Assembly: GCA_051294905.1 (NCBI GenBank)
Contig: CM119372.1
Location: forward strand, 28,708,001 to 28,772,000
From: Botryllus schlosseri
Taxonomy: Eukaryota
Direction of reading: 5' to 3'
Length of the DNA: 64,000 nt
Numbering within the stretch: the stretch's first letter is position 1; every line of letters starts with the position of its first letter. Below the pieces are notes generated by a model that was not told where the DNA came from, searched no databases, and saw nothing but the letters and a program-made list of their open reading frames with translations. Shown in pieces: positions 5,685-34,937 of the stretch. The position numbers and the translations under genes are program-made.

Positions 5685-5756
5685 GCAAAAATCACTATGA
5701 AGTAGTGTAACTACTAGATAGCCAGTAACGATTTTGAATTGTGTGCAGGTAATCCA

Positions 5757-8311: not shown

Positions 8312-8736
8312 ATTGCCAACAATACCCAGAAATTGGGAAGCCTAGAGTAATCTTGGACTCTGTATCAGTGTGTGTGTGTGTATCAGTCATTTGCTTTCAG
8401 TGTATTTCAGCCCTGAATATCCTGAATATGTGAAAAGTTGTTCCCAGTGCGACATCGAAACAAACAAATGCATTATAAGTGCTTTTGTGATTCATTGTCT
8501 ATTTGGGCGATAAAAATATTTTCGCATCCCTAAAAGTTTTTGCTCCCATACACCTATGCTATTAATATATGGTTACTGTGTTCATTACAGATTTCGTTAA
8601 TGGAGAATGCACACTGTGCAGTGTGCAGTAGTGCACTGTGCATTACACAGTATCAGTGGCGTTTCACAAGATCCACCTAAGCATAAGTCGTGATTTCGTC
8701 GGATGATAATTCAGCTATATATCGCGATATTACAAC

Positions 8737-9345: not shown

Positions 9346-9839
9346 TTTCTTTTTCACCTAGCTCTCCTGAACTGATCATATACACTTCATGTAGTTTGAT
9401 AAGCGCCTGAATTGTGGCGAGAATTGATGACAGTCAGCAGAAATTAGTCTACAATAGGCTTTCCCTATATGCCTCGCTTTTGTAGCTGTGAAAACTTTGC
9501 ATTGCTATGTCACGCTTCTGTAATCCTATACCGGCTCTCTATTGGCAAAGCGAATATCAGAGCACCATGGAGATGACCATAAAACGCATGATAATGATTA
9601 TCGCACTTTTAAGCAAGGAATGGACGGCGGAATTCGCAATTGGACGCCGCAGTCAGTCCAATACCATCGATGACGTCCCAATCATATTTGGCGTTCGCGT
9701 CTAGTAGAAACTATTTCATTTTGCTTCGGCGATTCAAAGCGCACTTGGTGAATGCATTTATGCATATGTGGAGAGCGTGCTCACCACAATATTTATTTTG
9801 TTGTATGAAATTGGGTGTCAATAAATTTCTGGAAAACTC

Positions 9840-9878
9840 ATACTTACCTGACGAGGCAGTGAACCATGATCAAAAAGG
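9840..9878 (+). pseudogene. U1: U1 snRNA, 5' fragment (gene split by Tx1 element A)
   Basis: atacttacctgacgaggcagtgaaccatgatcaaaaagg followed by unrelated sequence. The upstream flank is the normal array spacer. Confidence 0.92.
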
Positions 9879-11409: not shown

Positions 11410-13050
11410 TAGGGTTGTTCAAAATTTGGAAAATCTTACAAATCCTCCGTTGTAATGTCTTATTCTATAGATTATTGATAAAAAACGACACTGAGCCTAA
11501 AAAAAGCTTACAGGAACGCCGTTAAGATTTCGTGCAAAGCGTTTGAAAGTAGCTGCCAAAGAATGGGCGTGCCACCGACCATCGAACGGCGAGAAGACTA
11601 GTAATCACGAAACCACGGCTCTTGATTGGCTGATCGGCTATGCTTCAATGAACACGGCAGCAGCTACTTGCTGATTATGTGATCAAGGAGTCTGCTACCG
11701 GCGGCGATTCTGGAAGCGCATTGTATGTAGGCTGACAATTAATGATTTAGGATTGATTCAGGGTATGTTGAGGTACGAAATACATGCTGAACAAACAACA
11801 GCTGCTTCATAAATCCGTCTAAAGCATGGCCGCTTTAATGCGAAGGACACCGCCGTAGCCTATATGCCTTGTTTTCAACGAGGGAAAGCATAGGCGCTTA
11901 TGCAAGTGGCGACGGATTCCAAGTTTCAGAAAGGATCTATCATTATTGAATACAAATATAAAACTTAACAATGACACTACTTTGTCTGTGTGATCTTATT
12001 GGGCTCAGGTTGTAGCACATAGTTGAAGTTTTGAAAGCTCTAAGGATCGGCTGAATCAGCGGGTTATGCTTGGCACTTATCAGATGCTTACAGCAAATTG
12101 TATTCACTTGCAAGTGTTGTCAAAGTCCTTAATGCTGACGCAGAAAAGGGGTGTAAAAGTAAGCGCATACTATGCTGGACATGATATGTCAAAGTCCTAA
12201 ATAATCGTGCAGAAAAGGAAAATAAAGGTAAGCACAGACAATGATGCATATTGCACAGTATCCAGCATAGTTTGTAAGTCATATCCAGCATAGTCTGTGT
12301 TTACATTTACACATCGTTTCTGCGGCATCATTAGGGACTTTGTAAACACTTACAAGTGAATTCAATTTGCTGTAAACATCTGATAAGGGCCAAATTTAAC
12401 TGTCTGATTCAGCCGATCCCTAGAGCATTCAAAACTGCAACTATGTACTACAACCTAAGCCCAATAAGATCACACAAATTATATTGTCATTGTTAAGCTT
12501 TATATTTGTATTCAATAATGATAGATCCTTTCTGAAACTTGGAATACGTCGCCACTTGCATAAGCGCCTATGCTTTCCCTCGTTGAAAACAAGGCATATA
12601 GGCTACGGCGGTGTCCTTCACATTAAGCGGTCATGCTTTAGACGTTTTTGTGAAGCAGCTGTTGTTTGTCCATCATGTATTTCGTACCTCAACATACCCT
12701 GAATCAATCCTAAATCATTAACTGTCAGCTTACATACAATGCGCTTTCAGAATCGCCACCGGTAGCAGACTCCTTGATCACATAATCAGCAAGCTGCTGC
12801 TGCAGTGGTCATTGAAGCATAGCCGATCAGCCAATCAAGAGCCGTGGTTTCGTGATTACTAGTCTTCTCGCCGTTCGATGGTCGGTGGTACGCCCATTCT
12901 TTGGCAGCTACTTTCAAACGCTTTGCACGAAATCTTAACGGCCTTCCTGTGAGCTTCTTTTAGGCCCATTGTCGTTTTTTATCAATAATCTATAGAATAA
13001 GACATTACAACGGGGGATTTGTAAGATTTTCCAAATTTTGGACAACCCTA
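11410..13050. mobile_element. Foldback hAT-type MITE (TAGGGTTGT termini)
   Basis: Perfect 8-bp TSD gtacacat (11402-11409 and 13051-13058). The inverted arms are several hundred bp long. Confidence 0.92.
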
Positions 13051-13558
13051 GTACACATATACCAATTAGATCACCTGGTGGACCTAATGCAGAGTTATTC
13101 AGGAATCGAAAAGGTTATTTCTCTGTAAATGTACAAGTTGTTTGCAATTCTACAATGGAATTCACGCACATTGTCGCAAGGTGGCCAGGATCGACTCATG
13201 ACAGCAGGATATTTGAATCCAGCTCACTTCCTGTGTATCTGTCACGAACGAACAAACTGCTTCTTGGTGACAGTGGATACCCACTGTTGCAAAATCTGAT
13301 GACTCCGCTCCTAAATCCTCAATCCGTCGCTGAGAGGCGTTATAATAGATCCCATATATCTACCCGCATTAAAATTGAAAGAGCTTTTGGTGTATGGAAG
13401 CAAAGGTTTCAATGCTTGATGATTCCACTGCGCACCAGATTAGATAACTCGCTCGTGATAATTGTTGCTACTGCGTGCATCCACAACTTGTGCATTCGCC
13501 GACACGAAGACCTAAGCGACATTATGCAGCTCTCGGATAACGTTGCTGATGTGATAAA

Positions 13559-14806
13559 CAGCACCGTAACTGCCGCACCCCAAACCCCCCAATTGGGGGG
13601 GGGCGAGCTCGACGGGGGCCCAAAATTATTTCGTGAATTAGCATAAATCATAGAGTATTTTTTGAAAATTTACGCAATTTTTTCAAATGACCGTTTGTCT
13701 TTATTATTGGGTATTGGGCCATTACCGCGCCAAGACCTACCAAGACATACAATCAAGTTTTGGGCCATATAACATGCGACTCCAAGAAGTGTGCCAGAAC
13801 GATCGGCAGCGAGAAAACCTTGGCCGAAAAGGTCTATGCCCTTATGCTGACCGAAGATTTCGTTATATATACAAACTACATATAGGTTTAATTGTCCATA
13901 GGCGCCTAAATGACTGTCGCCGAATGTTGCTGTCTTTGCAATCTGAACCTCACTAGACAAATACCATCCCGCGGGGAAAAATTTTATACCAGTGAAGAAA
14001 TACCAATTTGAAATCGTGTCCGTCTCTTAGTTTAGAAGCTCACGTTTGGGCGATTCTATATTTTTTGTTATAGCAGACTGAAAGTCACGAAATAACATTA
14101 TGTAACGAAGTCATATCAACGGGTCCGCCCGCCGAAGATGTTTAATTATTATTTACGGGCTCTCCCGCTTTCCAGACACTTCACTCGGCTCTACCGGTGA
14201 ATCTAATTACGTGAGTAGAGAGGACAATAAATTGATAGCATAATATATATGCAATCGCCGATCTGATTGACCGATTTTATCATAAATTATCGATAATTTT
14301 CGCGCCTCGCGCTGCCTCACAATACAGTACAGATGATGTCGTGACAAACGCGAACAACGTGATGGGGGGTCGTTTTACACCCTATGGGGGCCCAAGACCC
14401 ACGTTTTTGGGGCCTGACGAAGTACTGTTTCGTTCCTGCCAATGGGTATACGCCCGAAGATGTTTAATTATTATTGAGTCGTCCTACCTTTTCAAACACA
14501 CCTCACTCAGCTCTACCGGCAAATCTGATTACGTGAGCAGAGAGAAGATAAAAATTGATAACAATATATATGCAATTCCCGATCATACTGACCGATTCAA
14601 TCATGAATTCGAGAAATTTTGCGCGCTTAGGCGACAAAAGCTGATTCGCTAAACAAACTCCCAACAATATGATAAATAGCGGTAAACAGGGTATCGCTGG
14701 AGGGGGATCTGGGGGGCGAAGCCTCCCAGAAGTTCGGCCTATAACCCTATGCGGGGCCCAAGACCAAAGTTTTTGGGGGGCCTGACGAAGTGCTGTTACG
14801 GCCCTG
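13559..14806. mobile_element. Non-autonomous hAT-type element, left copy
   Basis: Imperfect TIR cagcaccgtaactgc...gctgttacggccctg with internal ~300-bp repeats. Homologous to 30567-31860. Confidence 0.85.
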
Positions 14807-15793
14807 GTTACAGTAGTACAACTGCGACACGCAGAGGAATTTATTTCAAACTAATTCGAAATTGCGTGCGCCAGACATGTTTTGTAGAGCTGAGTAGTGT
14901 AGAATTGTGCTGTGCGCGTTCTGTATGTCATACATGTCCGTAAAATCGTAGCATACTACTCTAATAATGATGATGAATTCCTTTTCATGGGTGAGGCTCG
15001 GGTCGCGAGATGCCACTAAAACTCAGATTTTGGTGGTAGTCTAAAAAGCTGATTTATCGTTATTAAACTGTTATGAGTTCTCAATTTAGATTAAGCTAAA
15101 AAGCAGATCACACAGTATCGTGAGTTTATTTGCTCTTCTCGTTTACTCGCGAGACAGAAAATAGGAGATCGAAAAAAAAACAGAACACAAGTCGGAGCAA
15201 CGTATCATAAGGTAGCAATCTCTATGATGTGCCTACTCTCCTTGATCGTTTTGGACCTTATTTTCCAAGACGTAAGGTAAAAGCCTCAACACAAACATGT
15301 GGGGTTTCACTGTTTCGACAAACTGGAACCTCTGGTACCTTTGTGTCAGCTCTCAAAAACGATTTCTGCCAGCAATCATTTTTCACTCGTGAAAAATACG
15401 CCGTATCTTGGATAGGAGTGCAGAACAGATTTCAAGATCTGGCCATCCAAGCAATTGTAGACATTCTTGTACAAAACCCAACAACTTGTTTCGCCGAGAA
15501 AGGTTTTAGTGAAATAGTTGAAATCAAAACGAGCGAAAAAGTTTCCTTTACAATGAGACACTTGATAGCTTGAGCTACATAGTAGCCAATTTGTTGCACA
15601 TCTGAACAAAATGTTGTTAAGTATCTTCATCATATTTCTGTATAACAAATTTAAGTTAGTTTGTGCGAATGATATTCATTATACAAAAAAGTGCGAATGG
15701 AACTCAAAAAGGTTCAAAAGCACTGCTTCAGACCACTAGTTTCGAATAAAGCAAATTACCACAAAGCGACTCTCAACTGCTTAGGTTCTAATG

Positions 15794-17158
15794 CAGACCT
15801 AGGCAAAGTGCTGCCCGCGAAGCTATTCTGTGCGGCCCGCGAAAGGTTATCTGGAATTCAAAACATAAAACTTGCTTTTTGAATGACTAAAACCATAGGC
15901 TGTATCCACTGAGCAGGAAATTCGATTACTTTGAAGCCTGTTCATTAATATGTCACGATTACGCTGCCTACGTACCTCACATGCGTATTCCAGATTAAAA
16001 ATAACGGCAATGTGGCAAAGTTTGAGTAGCAATTAAAGTCACAAGAAATCACTCTTTCCATATAGTTGAGTTTTAACCTTCTTTGTTGCCATTGTCACAT
16101 TTTGCATTATACGGTATGTGTTTCAAATTGCTACGTGATACGTTTCCAAGTCCCTAATTCGTAAAACAAGTCAAACAGTACTCGCCATTACTATATCACT
16201 CATTATATCTATCACCCAAAATAGATGTCAAAAAAAGAAAGCCTAAAACTGAAATTCAAAGAAGGTCCAGAGCACTAAATATTTGTATACTGGAGTCAGG
16301 GGAAAACCCGTCCTTTTAGTTTTTGGCGAGGATGTCGTCGAGATTAAGAATTTTAATTAATGTGGGTCTTATGACAAAAACACGAAGCACTTAGTAAAAG
16401 GAAGGCGAATTTCAGAAAAACAGCAAGCTTCGCTCAACATCAAGGCTATATAAGCTGCACACTGCTGGGAAGGCAGCGACCGAGACAATAAGTTTTTACT
16501 ATCGCATATACATTTCAGTGCAGTGGTTCTAGAAGTGGGGGGGGGGGCGGGAAAGCATCTGAAGGGGCGTGCGAAGCCGCAGTTTAATAATATTTTTTTC
16601 GCGCTCCGCGCGATTTACCACCGGTTTATACTTGTTGCTCTGTGTTTTGTCCGACTTTTATCTGTCAGAATTCTCTCATCAACAGCCATAACGTTCCATG
16701 CCAACCAACTATCCGTTGGGATTGCTAGCATTCACATCGCACTATTTAATATTTTGCGATATATCTTGATAAGGGGCGCGAAATATTTCACTATCATAAA
16801 GGGAGGCGTGCCTAAAAAAGTTTGAGAACAACAGTTTTAGAATCTTAATAGAAGAACGTGGTTAGGGGTTTAAAGAGAGTTAGAAATGTATCATGTTAAC
16901 ATTGTTTCGAATCATGACGGCTAATAAATATTTTTTTAATAACCGTCACTTTCTCTTTACCTAACATCAACACATTCATTAAGCATCATTTATTAACAAT
17001 GTAATTTAGAAATGAAATTACATCATCATCGGCAAGCACTTGGCTGAGAAATGAAATTAAAACACGCTGGAAAATTTAGCTAAATTTTTTCATTCGGCCC
17101 GCCAACGTATTTTTTACTTCTCATTTGGACCGCGGAGGAAAATAATTGTCCACCCCTG
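15794..17158. mobile_element. hAT (Charlie/MER-like) MITE
   Basis: Termini cagacctaggcaa...ttgtccacccctg, perfect TSD ttctaatg, ggcccgc subterminal motifs. Confidence 0.85.
16521..16834. mobile_element. CAGTGGTTCT-type MITE nested in 15794-17158
   Basis: cagtggttct...tttgagaacaacag. Homologous to 26169-26470 and to an inverted fragment near 21575-21660. No clear TSD. Confidence 0.65.
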
Positions 17159-17716
17159 TTCTAATGCAACACCGACAATGCCAGAATTGAAGTTGTCAAG
17201 GTTAATGGCTACAAAGATATGAGGGCCACAATTGATTTGATCATTTAATTGAACTTGACGAACATTACGTTTGGTCACTAATCCACGCCCTTACTATATG
17301 CTATGTAAAATCATTCTCATTTACCAGCAGGTACGAGTATAGAGTACGTAAATTGAATGTTAGGCTGAACGAAATTTTGACCAATGTTAGGGCACGGAAA
17401 TCATGTTGAAGGTATATATGCGTAGCAGAATTTTACTAGTAATTTGTGGAAAGCTAGGGGATAGAATCATTAGAAGTCGCGAAGAAGTTCAATCGGTATC
17501 ACTTTTCTTATCGCCGACCTCACTGCAATTGCAGCGACTTAAAAAGCCCAGAAAGTATAATGAGCTTAAAAGTTGCAGCAAAGATCCGATGAATGATGAA
17601 TGACTGATTCGTTGAAGAGGAAGTGTAAGAAAAGTCGCCATTGAAAATGCATTGAACTGTCGAAATTGCCGTTGTGGCATTGTCGTGGAGCGCAAAGCAT
17701 AATAAGGCTATATAAG

Positions 17717-18429
17717 CAGGGCATGGTATGGTATGGTATGGCATTGAACGAAATTTCGGTATGGAATATGGAAAAATGCAAGTATGGTATGGTATGGAGA
17801 TTTCCCATGGTATGTAATGCTTTTTCCATACTTCCATACTTTTTCCATACTTTGACAGTTTTGCCAGAATCATGACTTTGATCCTACTTTCGATTTGTCA
17901 AGTTGATTGCATACCTCAGAAAATCGCTCACTGTCTATGGTTCATATCTCGAATTGTGATTCATGACTCACCCACCCCGGACGATATTTATTTGAAGACA
18001 ACAAAGTTGCGCATCGCGCATATGAAGGAAAATAATATTAATAATAATTTTTCAATCTAAATATCATAAAAACGAATGATATTCGACCGCTGTCGTGTTA
18101 CAACTTGCATTTCGATTGTCGTGACTTCCACTCCGTAAACTACCAATGGAGTTGTAAAAACCGTAGACTCTGACAATGTAGAAGTTACACGAACATTTTG
18201 ATCAATTTGTTGAACTTGTAAATAATTTTCTGCGCTTTGGTACGATTATCATCACGCAATGTCCATTTGACATAACCGCATTGTAATTCAACGAAGATTA
18301 ACCGCATTGTAATTCAAAGAAGATTGCTAAGTATGGTATGAAAAATTGCCAAGTATGGTATGGAGCGATTGGGGTGGGTATGGAGTATGGAAAATTTCCA
18401 TTCCATTCCATACCATATACCATGCCCTG
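17717..18429. mobile_element. hAT-type MITE with (TATGG)n subterminal repeats
   Basis: TIR cagggcatggtat...ataccatgccctg, flanks tatataag/actataag (6/8). Confidence 0.8.
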
Positions 18430-20305
18430 ACTATAAGCACCACTGTCCTATACCTTATCAAAACCATACAATACAATCTGGTATCGCTGCGTTCATACAA
18501 ATCCCGGTGGATTTCCAGCGGATTTGATTGTCGCTATTGTTCATTTTCTGGAGAATGCAGTGCAACCTGTACTCACTCTCCAATGTATGCATTTAATATC
18601 CTGTAATCGAATACCGCTATGGAACATGAGTAGGGCATTGTGATGTGAGGCGTTTCATTTAGAACTGTGTTTTGTCTCATAGGATATGCTCTTACGAGTA
18701 TCTATATTCTTCGGTGTGTAATTTTTACAATGCGTCGTTCAGTGCATTCATAATAAATTGATTTCAATACAGAATACCTTCCGGATTAGTAAAGCTGTGG
18801 TATAGAATAAAATCTGTAACGGATATGATATGAATCGTGACTAATGTATCATGATAAACGAAATTGTGGCGTTTTCCATTCACAAGATTTTTTTTCAAAT
18901 CTTATAGGACGATTCCCATTAGGTTGTACAGTATCGTAGATGCGAGATCGCGGATGTCTTATTCAGAAATTATACGCTTACGGAGTACGCTTACGGCAAC
19001 CTGGAAGCCTTTGAGGAGCCCAAAATTTTCTCAGAGTCACAAGAACTAAAATCGACTACATTACACATCTAACTACAGTCTACACATACTATGGGTTACT
19101 GGTGGACAAAATGAACTGTGTATCAAGAGTGTTAAATGAACAAAACCCCTAAAGTAGATTTTCCCACTAAACGAAAACATTATAACGAACAGTTATTGAG
19201 AATCAGTGTAACTACCTAATCCTGATTATAAATATTGCACATAGAATCGGCATCTCGGAAAGACGGACTTTTGATTTCGAAGCCTAACCTTTCGTGAGTA
19301 TATGCCATTTAACACAGCGTATCATCACAACATTCCCAGGTCAACTATGGACCGCGCCTAATTGCCTGCAGCCAATGATGTACAAGCGAGGCGCGTTATC
19401 ACTTGTCATATGTATAGAGTTGCGTGTGTCTTAGCCTCCTCGGTTCCATGAGACTAGCTCAAGGAAAACTGTGAATTATTCTACAAGGAAATATAATATT
19501 ATTTTGATGTTTAACATTGGCTACCCCAATGGAGGTTCGACAATAACAATTAGAAATGCTTTTACACTCGGTGTTCTTCCTGGAAATAGCACTGCGGAGA
19601 CGACCACGGTGGAATAGCAACATTAGGGTCGGACTAAAATTAAGACCGACGTATATGCCACTGAGGCCGAATCAATGCACGCCTTTACACATTATGCGCA
19701 AAAACGAACAATGTAACCTACTTTATATTCCAGTGTCGTGGTAATTTTTCAGTAAAAATATCATTCTATCTGCCAAATAAATACATTACAATTCCGCCGT
19801 TGTCACAAAAACCACCATGCATTAATTTAGGCGCTGTGCACTAAAAGTCAGTTTATTGAAGCGTGTCCTACAGGTCCGAGTTTACCAATAAATTTGTACC
19901 AATTTATTGTCTTTATTCCATTCGAAGGATTGGAATAAGTCGTTACAAAGTATCATTGAGACGTGACGGTGGTGATTCATAAATTATTCGTCAAGTCAAT
20001 ATCTTATAAGAGAGAGGTTGTAAACTTCAGTCATCAATTTCGTTTGAACCGTGGTACAAAATTACATTATTGTGTCTCGAATATCTAGCTGAAAAGTTGG
20101 TTACGAGGGTTGAATAGGAATGATGTAATGCACTACATTACTTTCACTGTACGCGGCCATACGACCGTACCGGTACATCACGTGCTGCCATGTTAAGAGT
20201 CCCCCTGTTATATGCACTAGCTCAGATGGAATGCCTGTTGATCCATAGAGTAGTATCGTATGCACATTCTGACCAATGGTGCAGAACCCGATGTGCATCA
20301 TTCGG

Positions 20306-21014
20306 GTCACGAAATAACAAATAACATCGTGTAACGAAGTCGTACCAACGGGTCCGCCCGTCCGAATATGTTTAATTATTATTTTCGGGCCCTACAGTTT
20401 CCAAGACACATCACTCAGCTCTACCCGTAAATCTCATTACGTGAGCAGAGAGGACAAGTAACCATCTTATTGATCTATTTTATTTTGAATTTTCGAAAAT
20501 TTTCGCGCTCCGCGCTGGCTCACTAAACGGGGAGCCTGATTTCGTGGCAGAAGCGAACAACGGCACGGGGGGTCGGTTTATGACCCTATGGAAGCTCAAG
20601 ACCCAAGTGTTCTGGGGGGCCTGACGAAGTGCTGTTTCGTTCCTGCCACCGGGTATACGGCCGAAGATGTTTAATTATTATATTGAGCGGTCCTACCTTT
20701 TCAAAGACAACTCACTCGGCTCAACCGGTCAATCTGATTACGTGAGCAGAGAGAGGATAAAATTTGAAACCAATATATATGCAATTCTCGATTATATTGA
20801 CCGATTCAATCATGAATTCTATAAATTTTTCGCGCTTCGCGCGACTTGTCGAGAGAAGCTGCCTGAAACGGACACCGATTTAGATCATGAATTGCGGTGA
20901 ACAACCATCTAGCCTGAGGGGGTCTGGGGGCTTCGAAGTTCGGTTTATCACCCTATGGGGGGCCCAAGAGAAACGTTTTTTTTGGGGGGCTGACGAAGTG
21001 CTGTTACGGCCCTG
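20306..21014. mobile_element. 5'-truncated third copy of the 13559-14806 element
   Basis: Same internal repeats and same right end ctgacgaagtgctgttacggccctg. Confidence 0.8.
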
Positions 21015-23080
21015 AGTATTGATAACTAATTTACGGATAGATGTGCAACAAGTGACTCACGATTGAATACGCCGAGATGCGTACTGATAAGCCGACAGAA
21101 AGCAGCATAATTGGTAGTCCTATAGCTCGCGACCCAAGCGTCCGAATAATTTGATATGTCGGTGTTTATCGAAAGCAAGTGTCGCACTGATTCCTAAAAT
21201 ACGAATTGAAATCTCGCCAGAGCAATAAAACTACTCCGAAATAGCCAGCAAAGGTTGATTGTTCTGAACAACGGGAGCGCGGCAACACAATGGCCAATGG
21301 CGTCAATCGAATGATCGGAACAATTCCAATTTTCATATTTTGGTGACTATTTTGGGTTCCTTTCATTGCCCTGGTATTCGTGCGGCCCCGGTCGTACTCT
21401 GAAATTCTAAATTTGGCCCTGCCATCGAAAAAGGTTGGGAACCACTGGCATAGAGGCTTGTCGAAATTCTAGTTTCAGATAGTTTCATGGCATGGAAGGT
21501 TAAGACTGTTGATAAGAAAAATATGAAATTCGAACTATAGATAGAGTAACAAGTATATGATTAAGACGTAAATCACGCGCAGTGCGAAAAAAATTCGGTC
21601 GACCGCTGCTTCGCGCCCGCCTTCTGATGCTTCCACGCCCCCCCAGTTTGAGAACCACTGCGCCGGAGATTTCTTCGAATTTTTGAAATTATGTGCAAAA
21701 ATAATTCTAATCTATAGCAAACGCTCAATAATCTAAATCGGGCTCGATGTGAAGTTTGTACATTTGACAAATCAAAATTGCTCTCATGCCCGCAATCAAT
21801 ATCCCCCGCTATTCGCTTTACCCGACATATTGCGTGCCTTGCAGGCTAAATTCGGTTTTGCACAATACGTATATTGATCGCAGAGAAGAGCAGTGATGGA
21901 GATGCCTGTGTGACAATGCAGTTTTCAAATCCTCGTTGTCTTCCTAATCACAAGCGAGAAATGAACTCCTTAAGAAGTCATGTTCATGTTCACGTTTACA
22001 AGTTCAAATTACAAACATACTCATCCAGGCATCCACATTGCGATTGTTACGTATCGTGCCGGCACCGCCGGTAAAATGTAGGCTCGGGGCGCAACGTTAC
22101 GTTACAGGCGACGAATTTGAGAATTGAGAAGTAAAATTTATTAATTCATATCAGTTAACAAATTTCCCCGCCTGTTGAGGGTATTATCCCGGTTTGTTGG
22201 AACTATAATTGAAATGCGGGTGGCTCTACCAGTAGCGCTATTGAGGTATTACTATCCTCCCACGTGATATTACACGATATGCGTTGAAATGCTTTCGGCA
22301 TTCTAGTATACGCCTCTACGCCTCCGTATTTGTTAGTGGCGATCGTGATTGGCCTCTTTGACGCGACGGTTAATTACATCGACAATGTGGTTGTGTGCAG
22401 ACTTTAATGTCAAGCAAATCTTTGGAAATTAAGCGCAGCCCGAAGTTTAAACGAGATCGCAGCAGGCAAGTTATGTGGTAGCATGAGGTAATTGCTGAAA
22501 ATTCAAAACCTCACACGGAAGCGGAGAAAGTTCTTCATCCGGCCTGCACTAAAAGTTTGACAAAATGTCTGGGACCAAAGCTGAGGAAGAATTGAAAACG
22601 ATGATACCGGTCGTAGACGTATTTGTGACATGTCCGCAGAGATAAAAGATGCCCTCATTTCTTTGAAGCAGAGTAAAGCTTACTTGACTACTCCGAAAAG
22701 GTAGAAGTACTTCGATCAGAGACGATCTCTGTACGACTGTGGTTGCTGCAAAATATTCTGTTAGTTTGCCGGTGCTGTAGGCCAAAAAAAAGCTTAGAAC
22801 TACTGTGCTAGTGTGCCGCGAACTATTTTTCACTTTCAAAGGTCGCAACGAGGTGAAAAGGGTTAATAACCACTGTACCAAACTATACACGAAATTCACC
22901 TCGCGTGATAAGTAAAAGCAAATTGATCTGCGATAGATATGGGATCAAAAATATTTAGTAATATTTGATCCTGCTACAGCCTACTCTCGCGCAGCATTAA
23001 ACCCACAAATTTGAACCATGTATCTTCAGGAAACCAACATTGACAGACAAACTCTTACGCTAGAATTCATTTACCTAGAC

Positions 23081-23200
23081 CAGACCTGGGCAAAGTGTGG
23101 CCCGCGGGCCAAATGCGACCCGTGAAGCTATTCTGTGTTGCCCACCAACGTATTTTCTACTTCTCATTCGGCCCACCGAGGAAAATAATTGCCACCCCTG
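23081..23200. mobile_element. 120-bp hAT MITE, short relative of 15794-17158
   Basis: cagacctgggcaa...ttgccacccctg with perfect TSD acctagac. Confidence 0.88.
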
Positions 23201-24517
23201 ACCTAGACGAAGAAAAATAAACCTCATGGGCACCGTACGGATAACATACGGAATTTAGAGCTTGACGGCATCCGCAATATCTTACTTGAATATGTCGCTG
23301 CATCGAGAGAAAATACCGCAATTCAAATAAAAAAAAGTCAACAGAGCCTACCGAACGAACAACTAAAGACGTCTTTATCCATCTATCATGGATTCGTCCT
23401 ATTTCCACCTGCTTCCAAAAGCAATTGATTTCTGCGCTCAGTGAGTGTTACGACACAGTTAAAACTATCATGATATATTCTGTTTGCGCGAAAAATTATC
23501 GAGATGACAGGTTTCGCGTCGTCAGGAAAAGGAGAAGCCGTTCGCACTTTCATATGTATGACTTGAAGTCGGTTTTTATCAAAACACGCCAACATAGTTT
23601 GTGCCAACAGCAGTACTTCGTGTACCAAGTGAAAGTAGTACACTGAAGTAAAGCGATCACTTCATATTTCGAAATTTTATGCTTATGACGTCATATTGGG
23701 TGATACAGTTTTTGATAAATAATGTTCTTCCAATTATCTACTAGTTGCTAACAATTACCCCCGATGTGTGCCAGCCCAAAATACCCCGCTTTATTACAAT
23801 ATTAATATACTATTGAATTCCGTATTGTACAACGAAGTGTCTTGGTTACTTAGATACAACGCAATAATCGTTATCCGCCTACTGTTAAACAAGCTCCTAA
23901 AATCCGGTTGGCAAAATAATACAAAAGCCCTATTGTCTACTTCGTTTTCAATGTAATGACTAACATATGGAATCTAATGGTACATATTTCCTTAATATTA
24001 GAATATAAGGCGGCATCTTACAACGAATTTCACTCGTCTGTTTTATTCGACTGCTGTGTATGGTAAAAAATGTGCGCAGTAGCAATGTGTGTAATAGCAA
24101 TAGTTTGAATAAAGGTTTGGCTATGTGATACATAGCTGAACTGAGTATTCAATGATAACTCAATAATTTGTGGTAGACGTTCGTTTTATATTCTTTCAAT
24201 AATCTCAGAAGCTGTCGTTGTACTCAGTCACTCGGTTTGAAGTGGCATGCAGATATTTCTACTTATACTTCAAACTTGTCCAAATGCTAAATTCGTCATT
24301 AGTCGATGTTCATGTTCTTCAAGTTTATCGGTCATCAACATGGTTTACTGTCAGCATTTCTTATGGAGTGGACTATGCCGGTCCTATACATTTCACCTGC
24401 ACGGTGTACATACACGACAGTGTCAATTATCTCATTTATCCCTCTATCTCCAAGACAACTCCATTGTTTTATCACGCATACAGATAGGAGATTTGAATTT
24501 GAAAAATAACTGACGAT

Positions 24518-25731
24518 ATGAGGGGACTAGTACTTGCAACTTTTCTGGTGCTGGCTATGGTGACATCGAGCCATGCATGGTTTCATGTTCACTTTCATAT
24601 TGGGTAAGATTTATCAATATACATATCTTCTATCATAATTGATCTTTGGAAACGCCTCGCACATTGCTCCAAACGCCTATTCCATTCCATATAACAGATT
24701 TATGACATCATCAATATTGGTCGGTCGTTTAAATTCACTAATAAGCGACCCTCACGTTCCGACATAACCCATATGCGATTGCAAGATCGAGCGGAAGTTG
24801 AAAGCAAAATGAATAGGCGCTGTGTGACGCTTTATTTACTCCGTTTCGTTATAAGGCCGGAAAAGATTGACCTGACTCCCCGCACTTACGATCTTAATTC
24901 TTATTATGACACTATTACTTCAATCGAGTCGCAGTGATTCGTGACATTGGCAAAATACTTTTCCATTTTCCATAGGTGCTATTAATGTCCACTTAATTTA
25001 CTAGGGTTAATGTTTGCTTACTTTGCAGGGATGAAGCGGGAGAGCCTGGCGAACATGAAAAGCCGGAGGAGCACGAGGGTGAGAGGCATGAAGATGTTCA
25101 TTTTCACTGGCGTCCTGCGAGTAGGAGGTAAGATTCAACGATATATAAATATGTGAATTGTACCATTGTACAAAGATTGTATCGGTCGAAACATCTCGTA
25201 CATTACCTTAGATGCCTCATCTATTCCTCGCACCAGATATAGTCACCGTCAATATGATTTGGTATAGGTCACTGACGACCAACCGAGGGATCGTCGGCGC
25301 ATTCTGGTAAACCAGAAGTTGAAACTAAAATCAGAGGGAGCTCTGTGACATGTTATTTGCCTTGTTCTGTTATCAGACTGGAAGAGATTGTGCTACATCG
25401 TCTTAGAAACTCATAATTTTCATCATTGAGGCATTATCATATTAAAGGCACGCGAGTTTCGGGACATTGGCTTAATACTTTTGCGCATTCCAGATGTCAA
25501 TGTGTCCACCTAATTTACGAGGATCACTGTTTGCTTACTTTGTAGAGATGAAGAGGGAAAGCACGAGGAGCACGAACATGAGAGGCATGAAGATATTTCA
25601 GGTATTATTCCATATTGTTCCTAAAGATAATGCAAATCCATCATTTTCGCTATATCCTATTCACAGCCATGCTGAGGGATATCATCCAGCAACATCGTAA
25701 CGACGGGAATGCGGCAAACTCCTTTCAGTAG
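24518..25731 (+). CDS. Secreted His/Glu-rich peptide precursor, 101 aa; coding exons 24518-24603, 25029-25127, 25546-25601, 25667-25731
   Basis: GT-AG introns with compatible phases give MRGLVLATFLVLAMVTSSHA-WFHVHFHIG-DEAGEPGEHEKPEEHEGERHED-VHFHWRPASRR-DEEGKHEEHEHERHED-ISAMLRDIIQQHRNDGNAANSFQ*. The signal peptide is clear and ends S-H-A. An upstream acceptor is present at 24483. Confidence 0.8.
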
Positions 25732-25892
25732 GAAGAATGCAGTCTTGATTTAATATCTCAAACCGGCGCAATCATCGGATGTGATTAAGAATAGAAAAAA
25801 TACATCATGTAATTCAAAGCAACGTGATATATTTGCTTCGTACCTTCGGGTGTTCTATGAAGGACTGAAATATTTCTGAAATGGGTTATGAC

Positions 25893-25918
25893 AGAGAGAG
25901 AGAGAGAGAGAGAGAGAG
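25893..25918. repeat. (AG)n microsatellite
   Basis: Uninterrupted ag repeat. Confidence 0.95.
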
Positions 25919-26084
25919 AAAGTATTTATTTTTATCCAACCGAAATACCCAACAAACTGGCAGCAATAACAGTGGTACAGAAAATAGGCACGTACTGGAT
26001 ACGGTACTAAATAGGAATGGTCGATCCGACCTTTCATATAAACTATATAGTCTGATCCCACCCGCCTCAAACATGCCTCTACAC

Positions 26085-27163
26085 CAGGGGTGAGCAAACT
26101 ACGGCCCTACACCGTTCTGTGCGGCCCGCGAGAGTCTAAAGAAAGTTTTTTTAAATATTGATAAAATGCAGTGGTTCTCAAATTTGGAAGCGTAAAAGCA
26201 TCAGAAGTGGGCGCGAAGCTGAGCTCGAATGAAAAAAATGTTCGCGCTCCGCGCGATTTACCAACAATTTCATGATTCTTGCTCTGTATTTAGTTTGAAT
26301 TTCACATTTAAAAATCTCTCATCCATAGTCGTAACCTTCCATGCTATCAAACTATCCGTTAGGTTTGCTAGCAACCTTGTTGCGTTTTGTGATATGACGG
26401 TGAGGGGTCGCGAAATCTTTCATCATTATAAGGGGGAGGGGGCGTATCTTAATAAGTTTGAGAACCACTGTTGTAAGGTAAATACTTCCTATATTATTTT
26501 TGATGTTTAATTTCTGGCGTGACAGCTTGAACTCAAGGCCCACACAGTTTGAAAAGTTTCAACTGCTAAACATCACAGATATCCTAAACGAGATTGACAT
26601 AATTCGGATCACGAGTAGAATTTCAGATTGGCCACTCCAGTTTTATTTATTTTAGTGATGTGCTTATAAAAAACGATTCGCACGTATCTTAGGTAGATTC
26701 GTTCTCTGTATGCGTAGAATTGGGGCATTTATATTTTATCTACACATAGTAAAAGCGTGTTTGAAGCTACTATAGTTATGATTCTGTGAGCATTGTGTGT
26801 CCTGGAACTGAACCAAAAGAGAAATTAGTAAATCTATGAACAGATCGCTGCTCACAGATTTAAATTTCAATCCTGTTCTAAGAATCGGGACAACCGACTT
26901 TCATCTCTATAGTTTTGACAAATTGGTTATTGAGCTCGACCAGACTATGAAATCTCGCCACTCTCTTTCTGACGCGTGTACGATATCACCAAAGCAATGT
27001 TTGGTTTGTTTCAAATAAGCACATATATTATCTCCATGTCCTCACTATATAATCAAATACCAATATTGCGTTTTGGTTTATAGTCCCATTTTATATAGTG
27101 CGGCCCGCGAATGGATTCAGATGTTGAATGCGGCCCGCGAGCTTAAAAGTTTGCCCATCCCTG
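26085..27163. mobile_element. hAT MITE containing a nested CAGTGGTTCTC MITE (26169-26470)
   Basis: TIR caggggtgagcaaact...agtttgcccatccctg, perfect TSD ctctacac. Inner TIR cagtggttctcaaa...tttgagaaccactg. Confidence 0.88.
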
Positions 27164-27230
27164 CTCTACACAGACAATTTTGACCATCAGGTTGGAGTAC
27201 AGCAGTACAGGCTCGGATTCACATACAAGC

Positions 27231-27410
27231 AAGGCTGTAGAGTCGCTAGATTTTACTACCGACTCCAAAATCCGACTCCGACTCCAGGCGTTTTCATTAT
27301 ACCGAATCCAACTCCGACTCCACGTCCACACATATTCATATACCGACTCTGATTCCGGATCTGACTCCGACTAGTTTTTCAAGATAACTCCGACTCTGAC
27401 CCGACTCCAA
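27231..27410. repeat. (CCGACT)n-rich MITE end fragment
   Basis: Clustered ccgactcc motifs. No partner end was found. Confidence 0.55.
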
Positions 27411-28188
27411 CGGTATTACCAATTTACTTCAAAAATTAGATGTCCCAGTGACGGTTAAATGACTATCAATAACCATTAGGCATGTGTAAACATCTGATTA
27501 ACGATGGCATACAAAGTTGTTTCATTGTGACACAAAAGTATTCTTTATGCAATTAACATGGAAGAATGCCTTTCGAAATATCCTTCCTTTTTCATGTTTT
27601 ATAACATGGACTCTCTAATGCCCTTATCTGTATGAATCATTCAACGATGACATAGATCCAATCCTGTATCAATAAAATGTAGATAAAACAATCTTGGTGT
27701 AGCTCTTGTGTATGAGTCGGCAACTAATACGGCATGTAACTTACTAATTTTCTCATTACACACTATACTGATTACAAGCACACACACTCTCGCTACTAGT
27801 AAACATTCGTCAGAAACGAAATTTGGGAAGTAGTCAAATAGCTTATGTCTATCTACATGTACTTAGTCAAGTATTCAAGGAATAGGACTTGCAGTCTTTC
27901 TTAGTCATTTGTTCGACCCAAGCAACTGAACTACACTACAGATATTTTTAATTTTGTCCAGTGGGAAGCAGCGTAGGGTGTGTGGTCATGGACATTGAAG
28001 ATGTTCGACATTTGCTGTCTTGAGGGATTATTTAATGGAAGTATCAAGTATAAAAAAAAACTTGAACATTTGTTACACATCTGCCAGATAATATAAACAT
28101 TCCGTAATTTCCTCAGAATTGTGTCGCGAGCCGGATGCGGCCCGCGAGCCACATGTTTGATACAACTGGTGTACTGTACACTGTACAG

Positions 28189-30081
28189 TAGGGTTGTTCA
28201 GATTTGAAAAATTGTCCGGAAACTGCGTTCGCCGTATTCCAAATGATAGTTTAGTATATAAAAATACTTTTATACGCGATTTTGGTCATCTTCATCCTGA
28301 CCTTCCTTCCCCTCACAGCCCCCAAAGATCCACTGGGCAATTCTCCTTCCTATACGTGGTATGTATGGTTGACTATGTCACCGGTTTATTGCTTTGTGAC
28401 GTTATCAGATGAAAACGGCAGTTTGGAGATAGGATTTTGCAATAAAATAAATATGTTTTTAAAATTGTACTTAAATGCAGTCCTATAGAGGCCACATGCA
28501 TCTCAGTTTTGCTCTGCACAACCTGTCTATCATGTGAATGGGAAGCATGTCTTGGTTGCACGGTAGACAATAGACATCGACTTGTTTTGAATCGTACATT
28601 GAAGAAGCGCCGTTGGGTTGCAAGTCGAGAACAAATGCAGATATTTTCTGCTAGTTTTCAGCCTGAAGATATTATATACTGGTATTTAATGTCAGTAATA
28701 CTTTTCTGAACTTTAAATAATCTGTAAAATTCCGAGTTATCTTGTTTTATGGTAGACTGCAATTAGGTTGAAGAAGATTGTGTGAAACAAAGCGGAGAAG
28801 GGTTTTTCTGGACCCATCCTGAACAAGATTCAAGTCTGCTCACTATTTGGTCTGATATTCTGGTCCCTATTTGGTCGGATATTCATCTGAACGTATTAGT
28901 CACTCCAAGGCACCTACTCTAGATCAGGTTCTACAGTATTTGCTATATCTAAAAGAAAATTGCCATAAGACTGCCACAACGCAGGTCTGTGTTCTTCTAA
29001 GTTGGAAGTTAGTTTAGGTTGCCAAAGTATAGATTAGAACAAGAATACCTATAAGGCAAGCGCAGAACATTGTGTAGATGCATTGTTTCACACATTCTTC
29101 AACTAAATTGCAGTCTACTATGGCGCGCTTCGGCACGCTGTCTGAGTATATAGACTACGTTGCGTTCCCTATAGGGTCCGCAACAGCGAGTCGGCGGGTA
29201 CGTTGGCAGGCACTTTATTGTACGACAGAAAACATCAGCGGACTGACGGTAAAACATCGGATAAGATAAACAGCGTTGGTCGTACAGCGACGGTCGATCG
29301 TCAGATAAAAAGGCGGCGGCACTCGTCATGTAAAAAGGCGGCAGCACTTTTCAGGTAAAAAGGCGGCAGCACTTGTCAGGTAAAAAGGCGGCATGTATCT
29401 AACGAAGGTCTTCTTTAAATAATCAAAATCCAGACAGATTCGCGCACAACGATCAGCAATGATGGGTAATTGATGATCCGACGTCGAGAGGGTATGTGCA
29501 GTACACCAATCCACCATACTACAATAAAATAAGATAACTCGGTATTTTACCTATGATTTGAAGTTTGGAAAAGTATTACTGACATTACATACCTTTAAAT
29601 AATATCTTCTGGCTGAAAACTAGCAGGAAATATTCGCATTTGTTCTCGAATTGCAACCCAACGGATCTTCTTCAATGTACGATTCAAAACAATTCGATGT
29701 CTACCATGCAACCAATACATGCTTCCCATGAACATAATAGACCGGTTGTGCAGAGCAAAATGGAGATGCAAATGGCCTTAATAGGACTGCATTTAAGTAC
29801 TGTACAATCTTGAAAACATATATATTTCATTGCAAAATCTCATCTCCACGCGGCCGTTTTCAACTGATAACGTCACAAAGCAATAAACCTGTGACATGGT
29901 CAACACTGCAGATCCAGTATTTAGGAGAATTGCCCCGTGGATCTTTGTGGACTTTGAGTTGAAGGAAGATCAAGATGAAGATGACCAAAATCGCGTAGAA
30001 AAGTGTTTTTATATAGTAAACTATCATTTGGAATACGGCGAACGAAGTTTCCGGACAATTTTTCAAATCTGAACAACCCTA
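28189..30081. mobile_element. Foldback hAT-type MITE (TAGGGTTGTTCA termini)
   Basis: Perfect TSD ctgtacag and long inverted arms. The terminal motif matches 11410-13050 but the body differs. Central aaaaaggcggc repeats at ~29305-29395. Confidence 0.92.
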
Positions 30082-30348
30082 CTGTACAGCATTAAAGCAC
30101 TGACTGGGCATTTAAATACCGGTACTGCGTTCGTTAATATCAAGAAGTCATACACTCGAATTCAATCTGGGGTGATTATTCAAGTGTAACTGCAGCAAGA
30201 GCTATATGAGCGCGTGTTGCGACCTTATCATTACACATCCGCTTCCTACTAAACACCCAACGGTTTGAATATTCGATATTGGTGCGCTCGTTGCCAATCC
30301 GTCCGGTGTCGATCAAGTTTACTGGAATAAAGAAGGTTCCCCACCAAG

Positions 30349-30566
30349 CAGGGTTGTAATGACTCGAGTCACGGTTTTCTGATGACTCGACTTGACTCGA
30401 GTCATTTTCTCAAAATAAGGAAATGACTCGACTCGACTCGAGTCAATATGTGTATTGACTAGACTTGGGCCCGAGTCATTACACATGACTCGAACCAAGT
30501 CATATGATTCGAGACTCAGACGGCGATTACGTTTCATTGTAATTTCGAAGAGTAGTAAATTACAAG
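30349..30566. mobile_element. Half MITE of the 5173-5684 family, cut at the start of the 30567 element
   Basis: Begins cagggttgtaatgactcgagtc and matches the reverse complement of the right half of 5173-5684 up to tttcattgtaatttc...tagtaaa. Confidence 0.8.
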
Positions 30567-31860
30567 CAGCACCGTAACTGCCGCACCCCAAACCCCCCAA
30601 TTGGGGGGGGCCCGAGCTCGAAGGGGGCCCCAAATTATTTCGTGAATTAGCATAAATTATAGAGTATTTTTTGAAAATTTATGCAATATTTTCCAAAATT
30701 TTTCGCGCTGCGCGCGATTTAAAGTTGCCAAATGTCTTGATTATTTGGTACTCTTCCCCAAAGAAAAAACACGCAAGATTTATAGAAATGGACATATCGG
30801 CGTTGGCCATTAATACGCCACTACGCATCAAGATATATAACGATTTAGGACTTATTACATGCGACTCCAAGAAGTGTGCCAGAACGATCGGCAGCACGAA
30901 AAGCTTGGCCGAAACAGACTGCCCTTATGCAGACCGAAAACTTCGTTATATAGGCCTATACAAAATAATAGGTTTAATTGTCCATAGGCGCCTAAATGAC
31001 TGGCGCCATATGTTGCTTCCTGTCTTGGCAATCTGAACCTCAGAAGACAAATACCATCCAGCAGGAAAAAAATATATGCCTGTGAAGAAATACCAATTTG
31101 AAATCGTGTGCGTCTTTTAGTTTAGTACGTTTGAGCGATTCTATATTTTTGATATAGCAGCCAGGAGGTCACGAAATAAAATCATGTAACGAAGTCATAC
31201 CAACGGGTCCGTCCGAAGATGTTTAATTATTATTTACGGGCCCTACAGTTTCAGGTAAATCTGATAACGTGAGCAGAGAGGACAAGATATTGATAGCAAT
31301 ATATTAGCAATTCCCGATCTTATTGACCGATTGTATCATGAATTATCGAAAATTTTCGCGCTTCGAGCTGGCTCACTAAGCAGTGCAGCTAATTTCGTGG
31401 CATAAGCGAACACTGTGATGAGGGGGTCGGTTTATCACCCTATGAGACCCCCAAACCCAAGTTTTTGTGGGGGGGCGAGGCTGACGAAGTGCTGTTTCGT
31501 TCCTGCCAATGGGTATACGCCCGAAGTTGTCTAATTATTATTGGGCGGTCCTACGTTTTAAAACATACCTCGCTCAGCTCTACCGGTAAATCTGATTACG
31601 TGAGCAGGGAGAGGATCAAAATTGATAGCAATATATATGTAATTCCCGATCATATTGCCTGATTCAATCATGATTTACTGAAATTTTTCGCGCTTCGCGC
31701 GTCTAGGCGGCAAAAGCTGATTCACCAAACGATCCCCCAATGCAGATGTGAAATAGCGTCAAAAAGCGGACAGCCAAAGGGGGGTCTGGGGGGCGAAGCC
31801 CCTCAGAAGTTAGGTTTATCACCCTCTGGGGGGGCCTGACGAAGTGCTGTTACGGCCCTG
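30567..31860. mobile_element. Non-autonomous hAT-type element, right copy
   Basis: Direct, visibly diverged homologue of 13559-14806 with the same termini. Confidence 0.85.
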
Positions 31861-32218
31861 GTGATAAATACACCCGAGAGCGATTTTGGGCATACGCCAG
31901 ATAGTACTAGTACTATTTCAGGTAGAGCCAAACGCAACGAAATAGTGTCCTGTCATTTTACGTAACTGGAACGTGATAAGCTTTGTCAACAGGAGTTTGC
32001 GTACCATCTGGAATGGTACATTAAACGGTCTTTCTTATCTCATGCTGTCATATTTTGTGATACGATTGTTAATATACAATGTTTTCAATTCTGTGAACAA
32101 CTCGCTACCTATTACCAGCCGACAAATATTTGGGTTTCAGTTGTTAATAAACAAAGAATTGCAGTCGAAATATTTGCAAAGTTGGGCAAGGTTTGGGATG
32201 GTAGGCCTATTTTAAAGT

Positions 32219-33687
32219 CAACCAGTCATATTTTTTTTTTCAAGCAGTATAGTTCCTCTGCCATTTCCATCTTCTTCTCTTCATTACGACGTTGCAGTAC
32301 AGCATTTTCCATTTGGAAGCGATATAGATCCATCCTCATTGAATGCTCCTTTGCATTCATTGCATGGATCTGACTGCACAAGCCTGTATTGAAATAGGCA
32401 CATATGAAAGATCATGTATGACAACGTATATGCATGCAATGGGAAAATCCTTGTCTACTGTGGCATTCTATCAACACCGTTGAAAGCACCATAACCATTT
32501 GATTACGTGCAGGTAAAATTTGCAACAAACCTTCAAGTTTAGGATTATCCATCCACGGTCTTTTCCGCGCCTTCACAATTGGAGTAGACGCTGCTGCATG
32601 CGCGATGTTTTCACTATCATCACTAATAATGCTGCCTGAATAAACAATAGATTGAAAATGCTGAGGTTCATTAAAATTGAAATGTCTCTGCTGCACACAC
32701 ACCGAAATTGCTGCAATTATTGTTGGATGCTTCTGGCACATCACATCTGTTTGTCTCACTTTCTGTTAAAACAAACAAAGATCCTGTCAGAAGCTTTCGA
32801 ATCTGTAACCTGCTTAGATCACAAGGATGTGGCAGTATCTTCGTCTGCTGTAACTATTCCAATTGCAACTAAAAGGCCTCTGCTCACCTATCGGTTCATC
32901 ATCTGGTATTTGTGCTGCAAAACAATTGGTAAGTATCAATGTAAATACTCATCACATACAAATATGTGAATTGAATACCCACTGAATAATATGTCAATAA
33001 GTTGATCCTGTTTATCGGGCTCATTACCGAATTCCGGTACTTTCTCTGCATCAAAGTCATATGGATTTTGCAGTGGTTCTATCTGTGACGGAATGATGCC
33101 TGGAAATGAACAGCAATATAACTTTGTGATATCGTTCTCTGGAAAGCACATCCCACACTTTCTAGATCTGTTTGCGCTAGATCCGAAATAAAAATTTACT
33201 ATGGGACGTAGTTATAGGTAAACTTTCACATCACCTGTCAGCTGTAGAATTTTTTGATTGATAATCTGTTGTAATTAACTCATGATATCTGTTCTCAACT
33301 ATAGGCTCGATACAACCACTGTAGTACAGTAACAAACTAAACTATAAAATATGAATCTTACTAAGTATTTTCTTGGACATCTCGTCCAACTCAGGAGGTG
33401 GAGGTCCTCCTCCGGTTTTGAAAGCGCATATGCCTTTGTTTCGCGAAATCCTTTTTGGTCTTCTGCTTCAAATTACGCCACAGGTTTTGCAGCTGACGGT
33501 GTGTCCGCTTGCAGCCAGTTGTCCGAGAGTTGAAATTTTCAGCAATTTCAATCCAGCAGTTCTCTTTTTGCTTACTAGTCTTGCCATCTGTTGCTTTGCT
33601 CTCAATAATTTTAGAATAACTTTCAGCCAATTCTACTATCAAATGTTTTTCTAACTTTGAATAGTTTTCTCCTCGCTTCACAGCCAT
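32219..33687 (-). pseudogene. Harbinger Myb/SANT-like DNA-binding protein, multi-exon, frameshifted
   Basis: MAVKRGENYSKLEKHLIVEL...IIESKATD.....KENCWIEIAENFN....RT.RQLQNLWRNLKQKTKK followed by a frameshifted TGGGPPP and a GT donor near 33364. The last exon is coiled-coil-like (~32219-32393). Internal exons were not fully resolved. Confidence 0.8.
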
Positions 33688-34937
33688 TTTAGAAACCTGT
33701 AGACTGAGCAATGGAATCATGATCATTACTCACATCAGTAATAGAGCAGTGTAACAGCACCAAATAAACCTAAGTCAAACATTATCAGGCACCGAAGACT
33801 GGATAAGAACCGGCTACCGATATTTACCGATTCCCGAAGAGAAAATTTATGTCACATCAAATGATTGATGGACAAACTGGACATGGTTATCACTTTACCG
33901 GTACTAAACACCATCATCATTTTCCGGCAAGCAAATTATCATCATTTGCGCCATGCAAATGGTTAAATAGCTTTATTCCCATCGGTTCGCTCTGTGGAGA
34001 AATCCTGGCTAATGTACGACCCACAAAATAAAATAGCCCACTTCTCACTTGATCATGACAGCCATTCACTTTCTATATTGAAAACCATAGCATATAGCCA
34101 GCACTACAGGCTTCCGGGCTACAATGAGGGTAGCAAGCTACCGATACTATACAGCAGTAGCTATACCCGCAAAGACTAATCAGGACCTTAATCTAGCTGC
34201 CGAGGTTGATTAAATTTTAACACTTGATTAACTTTAATTACAATCTGTGCAGTATAATTTCAGAAATTAACGTTACTAATCACTAGCATCCGTGCACCCG
34301 ACCCTTAAAGAGCGAGGTTGCCTTGATTGAACTGAAAGATAGGCCTGTCCTTGCACAACCACGCAGTTTCGGATTCAACCAAGAAATAGAAAACTTCACT
34401 TACCTTCAGTAGTGAAATCCACAGCCTTGCGGTCGCGCGGCGTCTTGAGGTGCTGAACAGAACAGTCTTCTAAACGGGTGTTGTGACTGTGCGTCCCTCT
34501 TGCACAGAAGCAAACAGGAACCACCTGAAATACAAAATACAAAGATTAGCAACATATCAGGATTAAAACTAACTGACATACAAGGAAACTGAGAGGTAAA
34601 GACAACAGCAGACAGCTACATAGGCATAGAAATTGCCGATATTAGGTTTAGAGTATTGGAGGAATTGGACAAAGTGGCAGTAGAGATTTTGACAAGGCGG
34701 CATACCACAACGCATAAATAGAAGCTTGTAAACAACATACGAGCATAATACAGTTTGTGGAGATCAATAAATACCAAATAAAATAGAAATATCGCCACAA
34801 ATTCCAGGCTGCGGACAGAAGACCCGCGATTAGATAGACATTCGGACGGAACAAAGGACACCTTTGTCTCCCAATTTTTTGATTGTCTAGCGGCATTGTT
34901 GATATAACTAGCCACAGAGCGGTCAGAGGCTAAAAGA

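Follow-up and report, generated by a model that had tools for sequence, protein, structure and literature searches.

The window analysed here comprises 64,000 nucleotides of the Botryllus schlosseri assembly (495 Mb, eukaryotic; C2:28708001-28772000) and contains an 18.3-kb block in which two related non-autonomous hAT-like elements, termed L (left) and R (right), enclose 15.76 kb of other DNA, termed the cargo, within the transposase gene of a PIF/Harbinger element. We consider it likely that this block is a hAT macrotransposon, which moved as a unit to a linked site and subsequently took part in unequal crossing-over. A single transposition that used the left end of L and the right end of R explains the target-site duplication (TSD) shared by the outer ends, the lack of individual TSDs on either element, the colinearity of the cargo, and the truncated repeats at its edges. 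Positions below are those of the window, whereas the paralogous loci, including the three other cargo loci A, B, and D, are given in C2 coordinates.

The two outer ends of the block carry the same 8-mer, GTGATAAA, located at 13551-13558 immediately before L and at 31861-31868 immediately after R. The order of the junctions is GTGATAAA/L/GTTACAGT on the left and ATTACAAG/R/GTGATAAA on the right; in the window neither element has an 8-bp duplication of its own. The two Harbinger flanks are contiguous and separated by a single copy of GTGATAAA in all six uninterrupted paralogs that cover the site (L021, L022, L023, L026, L029, and L030), L026 having the variant GTAATAAA; the sequences compared are paralogous Harbinger copies, not an empty allele of the window locus. 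Since the flanks are contiguous in 6/6 paralogs, the identity of the outer 8-mers is not a matter of chance, and they constitute a true TSD. The segment 13559-31860 (18,302 bases) is one insertion with an 8-bp target duplication. The initial annotation had described GTGATAAA at the outer ends of two direct, diverged copies with unlike inner flanks, and both statements hold, the inner flanks being GTTACAGT after L and ATTACAAG before R.

Contigs of public sequencing runs that join position 13550 to 31861 (runs X1, X5, X9, and X10, all four) carry the bases of the paralogs at 13312 and 13385. These joints therefore derive from other Harbinger copies and are uninformative on the window locus, and on the same bases their interpretation as an empty allele of this locus was rejected. 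Among the matches listed for 13000-32500 in these four runs, all of them short contigs, none bridges the window-specific junctions.

The target of the insertion is a PIF/Harbinger element that combines a DDE_Tnp_4 transposase with a Myb/SANT-like second open reading frame (ORF). Its 5' part (10840-13550, + strand) includes the transposase ORF 12996-13558 (Pfam DDE_Tnp_4, PF13359, E 4.3e-33), and its 3' part (31869-33729) includes the last 34 transposase codons (to 31965, + strand) and the second ORF (33391-33729, - strand; Pfam Myb_DNA-bind_5, PF13873, E 5.7e-20). All Atlas neighbours of the interrupted transposase belong to DDE_Tnp_4 clusters. In the paralog L021 the transposase ORF is uninterrupted, and the window from 31861 onward yields the same final 34 residues bar one (residue N for D), in agreement with the earlier observation that the interrupted transposase is in frame again at 31861. 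The interrupted transposase is of the Harbinger type and is not the hAT enzyme that would mobilise L and R. The same transposase ORF is also split by an older insertion of ~1.6 kb at about 11413-13019, which has a pair of inverted arms of 185 nt (12000-12184 and 12279-12463); neither this insertion nor the 18.3-kb block interrupts the ORF in L021.

Element L (13559-14806, + strand, 1248 bp) has the left end CAGCACCGTAAC and the right end GTTACGGCCCTG, and element R (30567-31860, + strand, 1294 bp) shares these termini and represents another subfamily. The two lie in the same orientation and differ at 170 of 1183 aligned bases (~14%), plus several indels. They are identical over the first ~45 and the last ~33 bases, and this terminal identity suggests that one common transposase could act on both. 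The initial annotation called them MITEs (miniature inverted-repeat transposable elements), a term that fits poorly, as elements of 1.25-1.3 kb are long for MITEs. Their ends, CAGCACCGTAAC and CAGGGCCGTAAC, match at 10 of 12 positions and are putative terminal inverted repeats; the motif common at hAT termini is recognisable at the right end but just partly at the left. L-subfamily copies elsewhere in the genome are 88-94% identical to L. Perfect 8-bp flanks were found for 23 of the 27 other R-type copies that have both termini, two further loci lacking both termini. Duplications of 8 bp are a hallmark of hAT elements, and the L/R family displays them. The hAT dimerisation domain (PF05699) also has no fewer than 150 matches in the genome, with open frames of up to 934 aa.

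A third copy of the family is located within the cargo at 20319-21014 (+ strand). It is 5'-truncated, has an intact right end, and is oriented as L and R. This copy is present in the window, B, and D and absent from A; together with L it could make another pair of ends.

The cargo (14807-30566, + strand) is colinear with A, B, and D, and these four near-identical copies, all on C2, are the only ones in the genome. Its left edge begins with GTTACAGT (14807-14814), which is one copy of the duplication that L made at its original site. This 8-mer opens a left-truncated repeat of ~920 bp (14807-15727, + strand), the original host of L, represented by at least 35 copies at 83-88%; the other copies and locus A extend leftward through ...GTAGACAGTAGTTACAGT, the leftmost bases having remained at A. 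At the right edge, ATTACAAG (30559-30566) is one copy of the duplication that R made at its original site, and it closes a host-element fragment (30349-30566, + strand) consisting of the left 218 bp of a ~2.27-kb hAT-like element that begins with CAGGGTTGTAATG. The remaining ~2.05 kb of this element are found at loci A, B, and D, so that the partial element that the initial annotation had seen next to R does have its other part elsewhere. Both edges of the cargo are thus truncated repeats whose missing parts lie at donor-type loci, as had been predicted.

Two of the paralogous loci hold the simple insertions from which the inner junctions of the block can be derived (divergences between cargo copies are given as substitutions only). 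At locus A, which starts at C2:28483209, 238 kb upstream of the window, L is a simple insertion with GTTACAGT on either side. The cargo of A is ~2% diverged from that of the window (114/5,397 substitutions, 2.1%, over 14100-19700) and ends in ...AAATTACAAG directly followed by CACCCTATTGGG, R being absent; the empty site of R, with a single ATTACAAG, is present at both A and B, where AAATTACAAG runs directly into CACCC. Locus D (C2:28521086-28536957), 203 kb upstream of the window, matches window positions 16021-31836 at 99.5%, and over 16500-31700, R included, the two differ by 53 substitutions in ~15,200 (0.35%; 99.65% identity). R occupies C2:28535639-28536957 at this locus, has ATTACAAG on either side, and is followed by the remaining ~2.05 kb of its host element, to ...TTACAACCCTG at C2:28539011. 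It had been expected from the window alone that the donor would show GTTACAGT before L, and ATTACAAG with the rest of the host element after R; the former configuration was found at A and the latter at D.

At locus B, L begins at C2:28616586. The match of B to window positions 4226-23702, at 99.6%, takes in the 5' part of the Harbinger element together with GTGATAAA and L; beyond ATTACAAG B continues as A and D do, without R and the Harbinger 3' part. Up to about window position 22100 there are 18/8,796 substitutions (0.20%) between B and the window. Beyond this point, over about 7,940 positions, B differs from the window by 106 substitutions (1.33%) and from A by 67 (0.84%). The product of the cargo gene described below is the same in the window as in D and the same in B as in A, with two residues distinguishing the two types, a pattern that agrees with B being a mosaic.

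The surroundings of these loci have been duplicated as well. Over 20.7 kb of upstream sequence, B and the window agree at 99.87%, and the sequences downstream of D and of B are 99.8% identical over 13.4 kb. A distance of 104,973 bp, or ~97.8 kb when a 7.2-kb insertion is subtracted, separates the start of L in B from its start in the window, and the offset between D and B is about 97.9 kb. Judged by these offsets and identities, the region reads as a series of tandem ~98-kb units that would be bounded by the left end of L at GTGATAAA. Within these units, C2:28555788-28684318 contains several duplications, some inverted and others direct, that span 2.6-14 kb and are 99.6-99.9% identical, e.g., the inverted pair 28555788-28562087 and 28570512-28564213; this segment has been rearranged repeatedly and recently.

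The outer duplication, the uninterrupted targets in the paralogs, the simple insertions of L and R at paralogous loci, the colinearity of the cargo, and the edge repeats are direct observations, and the following course of events would account for them. A former donor would have carried L, the cargo, and R together. A hAT transposase would have brought together L's left end and R's right end, and everything between these ends would have been cut out or copied and inserted at GTGATAAA in the Harbinger transposase gene, with one 8-bp duplication made in the process. The use of the outer ends of two copies by a hAT transposase had been proposed in the initial annotation, and the shared TSD, the donor-type junctions, and the colinear cargo support it. 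The target would have been about 80 kb downstream of the right end of the donor before the later duplication; the present spacing between the R of D and the Harbinger half beside B is 79.6 kb. The donor copy was presumably kept, an outcome known from hAT transposition during replication. Between the old and the new 18-kb copies, unequal crossing-over would then have produced the ~98-kb tandem duplication, with B as the middle copy. The descendants of the donor would be D, which retains R and the cargo from window position 16021, and A, which retains L and a cargo about 2% diverged. Later exchanges with a ~2% diverged, A-like sequence type that lacked R may have reshaped the left part of the donor and the right half of B, the A-like right half of B and its missing R calling for one further exchange.

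Several observations weigh against this course of events. The donor locus predicted from the window stands only in part: the donor junction of each element exists on the same contig, but the two are split over A and D, and no assembled locus, among the four cargo copies on C2, combines L and R in the way a donor would. D is without L and the first 1.2 kb of the cargo, as it starts at window-equivalent 16021 at a tandem-duplication junction with the 3-bp microhomology TTT. At this junction, C2:28521088 (C2:28521000-28521170; L032/L033), sequence located 11 kb downstream of A is joined to window-equivalent 16021 of D, and the junction is assigned to a tandem duplication because the same stretch is uninterrupted in the downstream sequence of D and B. 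The final 1.35 kb before the junction are 99.4% identical to the downstream sequence of D, the rest of the sequence downstream of A being 96-98% identical, which suggests that the left part of the donor may later have been replaced by a diverged, possibly allelic, sequence type without R. A is without R and ~2% diverged; for L together with the early cargo, the A-type is the one form known, and the late cargo with R is known in the D-type. A direct 44-kb donor composed of A and D was rejected, since it predicts equal divergence, whereas the early cargo differs by 2.1% and the late cargo with R by 0.35%; because of this inequality, extra events must be assumed.

The assignment of L itself is likewise limited. 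The L of the window differs from the L of A at 41/1059 positions (3.9%), and unrelated copies of the L subfamily differ from it by 4.1-5.4%; orthology from the sequence of L alone was rejected as uninformative, and the orthology of the two copies rests on their shared position. Upstream of L at A lies another repeat, present in more than 40 copies and therefore useless as a marker of a second donor flank. B combines the Harbinger/L junction with an A-like right half and no R, a structure not expected from one crossover between the window copy and D. Finally, none of the 30 fetched loci with a hAT dimerisation domain is an autonomous hAT element with the L/R termini as its own ends (0/30); near the hAT domains of these loci, such termini occur only as separate neighbouring copies (L087 and L104).

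A different history is conceivable, although we regard it as improbable, in which an element resided at GTGATAAA first and break repair or a double crossover from an L-cargo-R donor copied the cargo into it, leaving chimeric ends. Crossovers in the terminal ~45 and ~33 bases, where L and R are identical, would be traceless, and ectopic exchange is frequent in the region, as seen from the mosaic B and the tandem duplications. The R of the window is near-identical to the R of D except for a 24-bp deletion located 33 bp before the right end, which could be a junction scar but is also explained by simple slippage between TG(A)GGGGG repeats. The first 200 bases of L are more diverged from the L of A (11/183 versus 30/876), a difference that is not significant. 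Against such a history, both exchanges must fall within 33-45 bp of the termini, given that the L-type sequence of L sets in at about base 60 and that R keeps its D-type sequence as far as the 24-bp deletion, ~35 bp short of the right end. A donor in which the cargo lies between L and R is needed anyway, and the events are more numerous than in a single transposition.

Fainter still are the prospects of an aberrant hAT transposition with re-replication, which would yield a composite insertion, or of a sister-chromatid event that made both the block and the ~98-kb duplication. Such events are reported for Ac (PMC3744419; PMC4270019), and the boundary of the ~98-kb unit lies exactly at the left end of L and GTGATAAA in both B and the window; however, an ordinary insertion followed by unequal crossing-over yields the same boundary. 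L and R have their ends in the usual outward-facing orientation, and the cargo is colinear with A, B, and D throughout, without an internal junction of non-contiguous donor segments. On paper, the two new junctions of a sister-chromatid event would end up on separate chromatids, whereas those of the block lie in cis.

The least probable explanation is an assembly artefact, in which a simple element in the Harbinger gene was mis-threaded through the L-cargo-R of another locus, or haplotypes were placed in tandem: the region is dense in repeats, only 0.2-0.35% separates three of its four cargo copies from one another, the ~2% divergence of A is what an alternative haplotype might show, and the four junctions are known from the assembly alone, but the 346 kb examined around the loci contain no N, the joins fall exactly at element termini with a perfect duplication and not within repeats, L and R are 14% apart so that one resident element could not be confused with both, and the window copy is distinct from D (53 substitutions and the 24-bp indel) and from B (18/8,796 in the left half).

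The macrotransposon thus favoured would have carried a host gene. The cargo gene is located at 24518-25732 (+ strand) and consists of four exons (24518-24603, 25029-25127, 25546-25601, and 25667-25732) encoding a product of 101 aa whose N-terminus is hydrophobic and signal-like and whose body is rich in His and Glu; the product is predicted to be of a secreted type. Its ORF is intact in all four cargo copies. Contigs of the public runs X9 and X10 contain the joint of intron 3 (GT..AG), and the splice between exons 2 and 3 is visible in the same runs as matching loose contig ends plus raised depth; intron 1 is predicted from its GT..AG boundaries. The gene is therefore spliced and expressed, the run contigs not telling its four copies apart, and the intron-containing gene that had been noted in the ~15.8-kb cargo is supported by splicing evidence for introns 2 and 3. 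No RNA runs were among the matches listed for the window stretch searched. Five ORFs of the cargo gave no Pfam match, and the Rfam scan of the cargo gave none either. Distant paralogs of the cargo-gene region (71-81%) are located 30-60 kb upstream of A, at C2:28422292-28424519 and 28450933-28453554; the gene for the secreted His/Glu-rich protein is a member of a local gene cluster.

The cargo further includes a foldback-like element with long inverted repeats at 28181-30089, whose arms are 103-185 nt long and 84-93% complementary. The arms form four blocks, and locus A has an extra 8.7 kb at this place (C2:28499422-28508150). Outside the block, a tandem array of at least 13 U1 snRNA genes with ~1-kb spacing occupies window positions 39782-60074 (Rfam RF00003, 77-142 bits). 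The array is situated in a duplicated block, C2:28747815-28768944 matching 28766933-28788087 at 99.7%. A strong AT skew (0.2-0.45) extends over many kb at 34000-48000 and 62000-64000.

Units of comparable architecture are familiar from bacterial composite transposons (Tn5, Tn9, and Tn10), in which two insertion-sequence copies flank a cargo. As in those, a larger unit with unrelated genes is bounded here by the outer ends of two copies of one small element. In contrast to them, L and R lack a transposase gene of their own and rely on an enzyme supplied in trans, the chemistry is that of a eukaryotic hAT system with an 8-bp duplication, and the unit is known from one move only and not as a recurring element. 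Among hAT systems, Ac/Ds macrotransposons of maize were reportedly described by Huang and Dooner in 2008. Maize Ac macrotransposons of 10-28 kb excise and reinsert while a donor copy is retained (PMC9910405, Sharma and Peterson 2022). The resemblance lies in two compatible hAT termini on separate elements that act as one transposon and in donor retention, which raises the copy number; the maize events, however, were captured in experiments in which the transposase was known and footprints were seen, whereas the event described here is reconstructed from one assembly.

The closest parallel is the maize White Cap (Wc) locus. There, a macrotransposon of the hAT element Tam3L moved Ccd1 and its neighbours over 1.9 Mb, left a matching 8-bp duplication at its outer ends, and was afterwards amplified in tandem through unequal crossing-over (10.1101/082677). 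In both cases, a direct pair of hAT elements carried the genes between them to a linked site, only the outer TSD is present and the elements are without their own, the empty or reference site is contiguous, the interior is colinear with its progenitor, and a tandem duplication of an expressed gene followed later. The two cases differ in that the present host lies outside the plants (its sequence was also met in a run from a marine metagenome), that non-autonomous elements of 1.25-1.3 kb from two subfamilies take the place of the 4.5-kb Tam3L given there, that the jump spans about 80-200 kb compared with the 1.9 Mb reported, and that the target is the gene of another transposon. The reversed-ends composite insertions of Ac (PMC4270019) also consist of host DNA bounded by hAT termini with a target duplication, but they are reported to have an internal re-replication junction, whereas the cargo here is colinear.

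Among the matches listed, the literature on macrotransposons concerns maize, rice, or cabbage, and the sole exception merely cites the maize work. The block in the window is most likely a natural case of hAT macrotransposition outside plants, well preserved together with its aftermath; it exemplifies a known mechanism and not a new one. Good documentation of paired small transposons that act as one comes only from experiments in maize and rice and from a few natural plant loci. The present case illustrates how non-autonomous elements of high copy number can shift 16 kb of host DNA and prepare it for copy-number expansion. Empty-site paralogs, both inner TSDs at donor-type loci, a spliced cargo gene, and a later segmental duplication are rarely kept together, and the junctions are suited to PCR typing in populations.

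More tentatively, abundant non-autonomous hAT elements may recurrently and recently have moved and amplified genes by macrotransposition in this marine eukaryote, one such jump having possibly seeded the ~98-kb duplication described above and brought the cargo gene to four copies. If recurrent macrotransposition of this kind is true, it would be a non-plant counterpart of White Cap, with the donor, the target, and the aftermath preserved on one chromosome.

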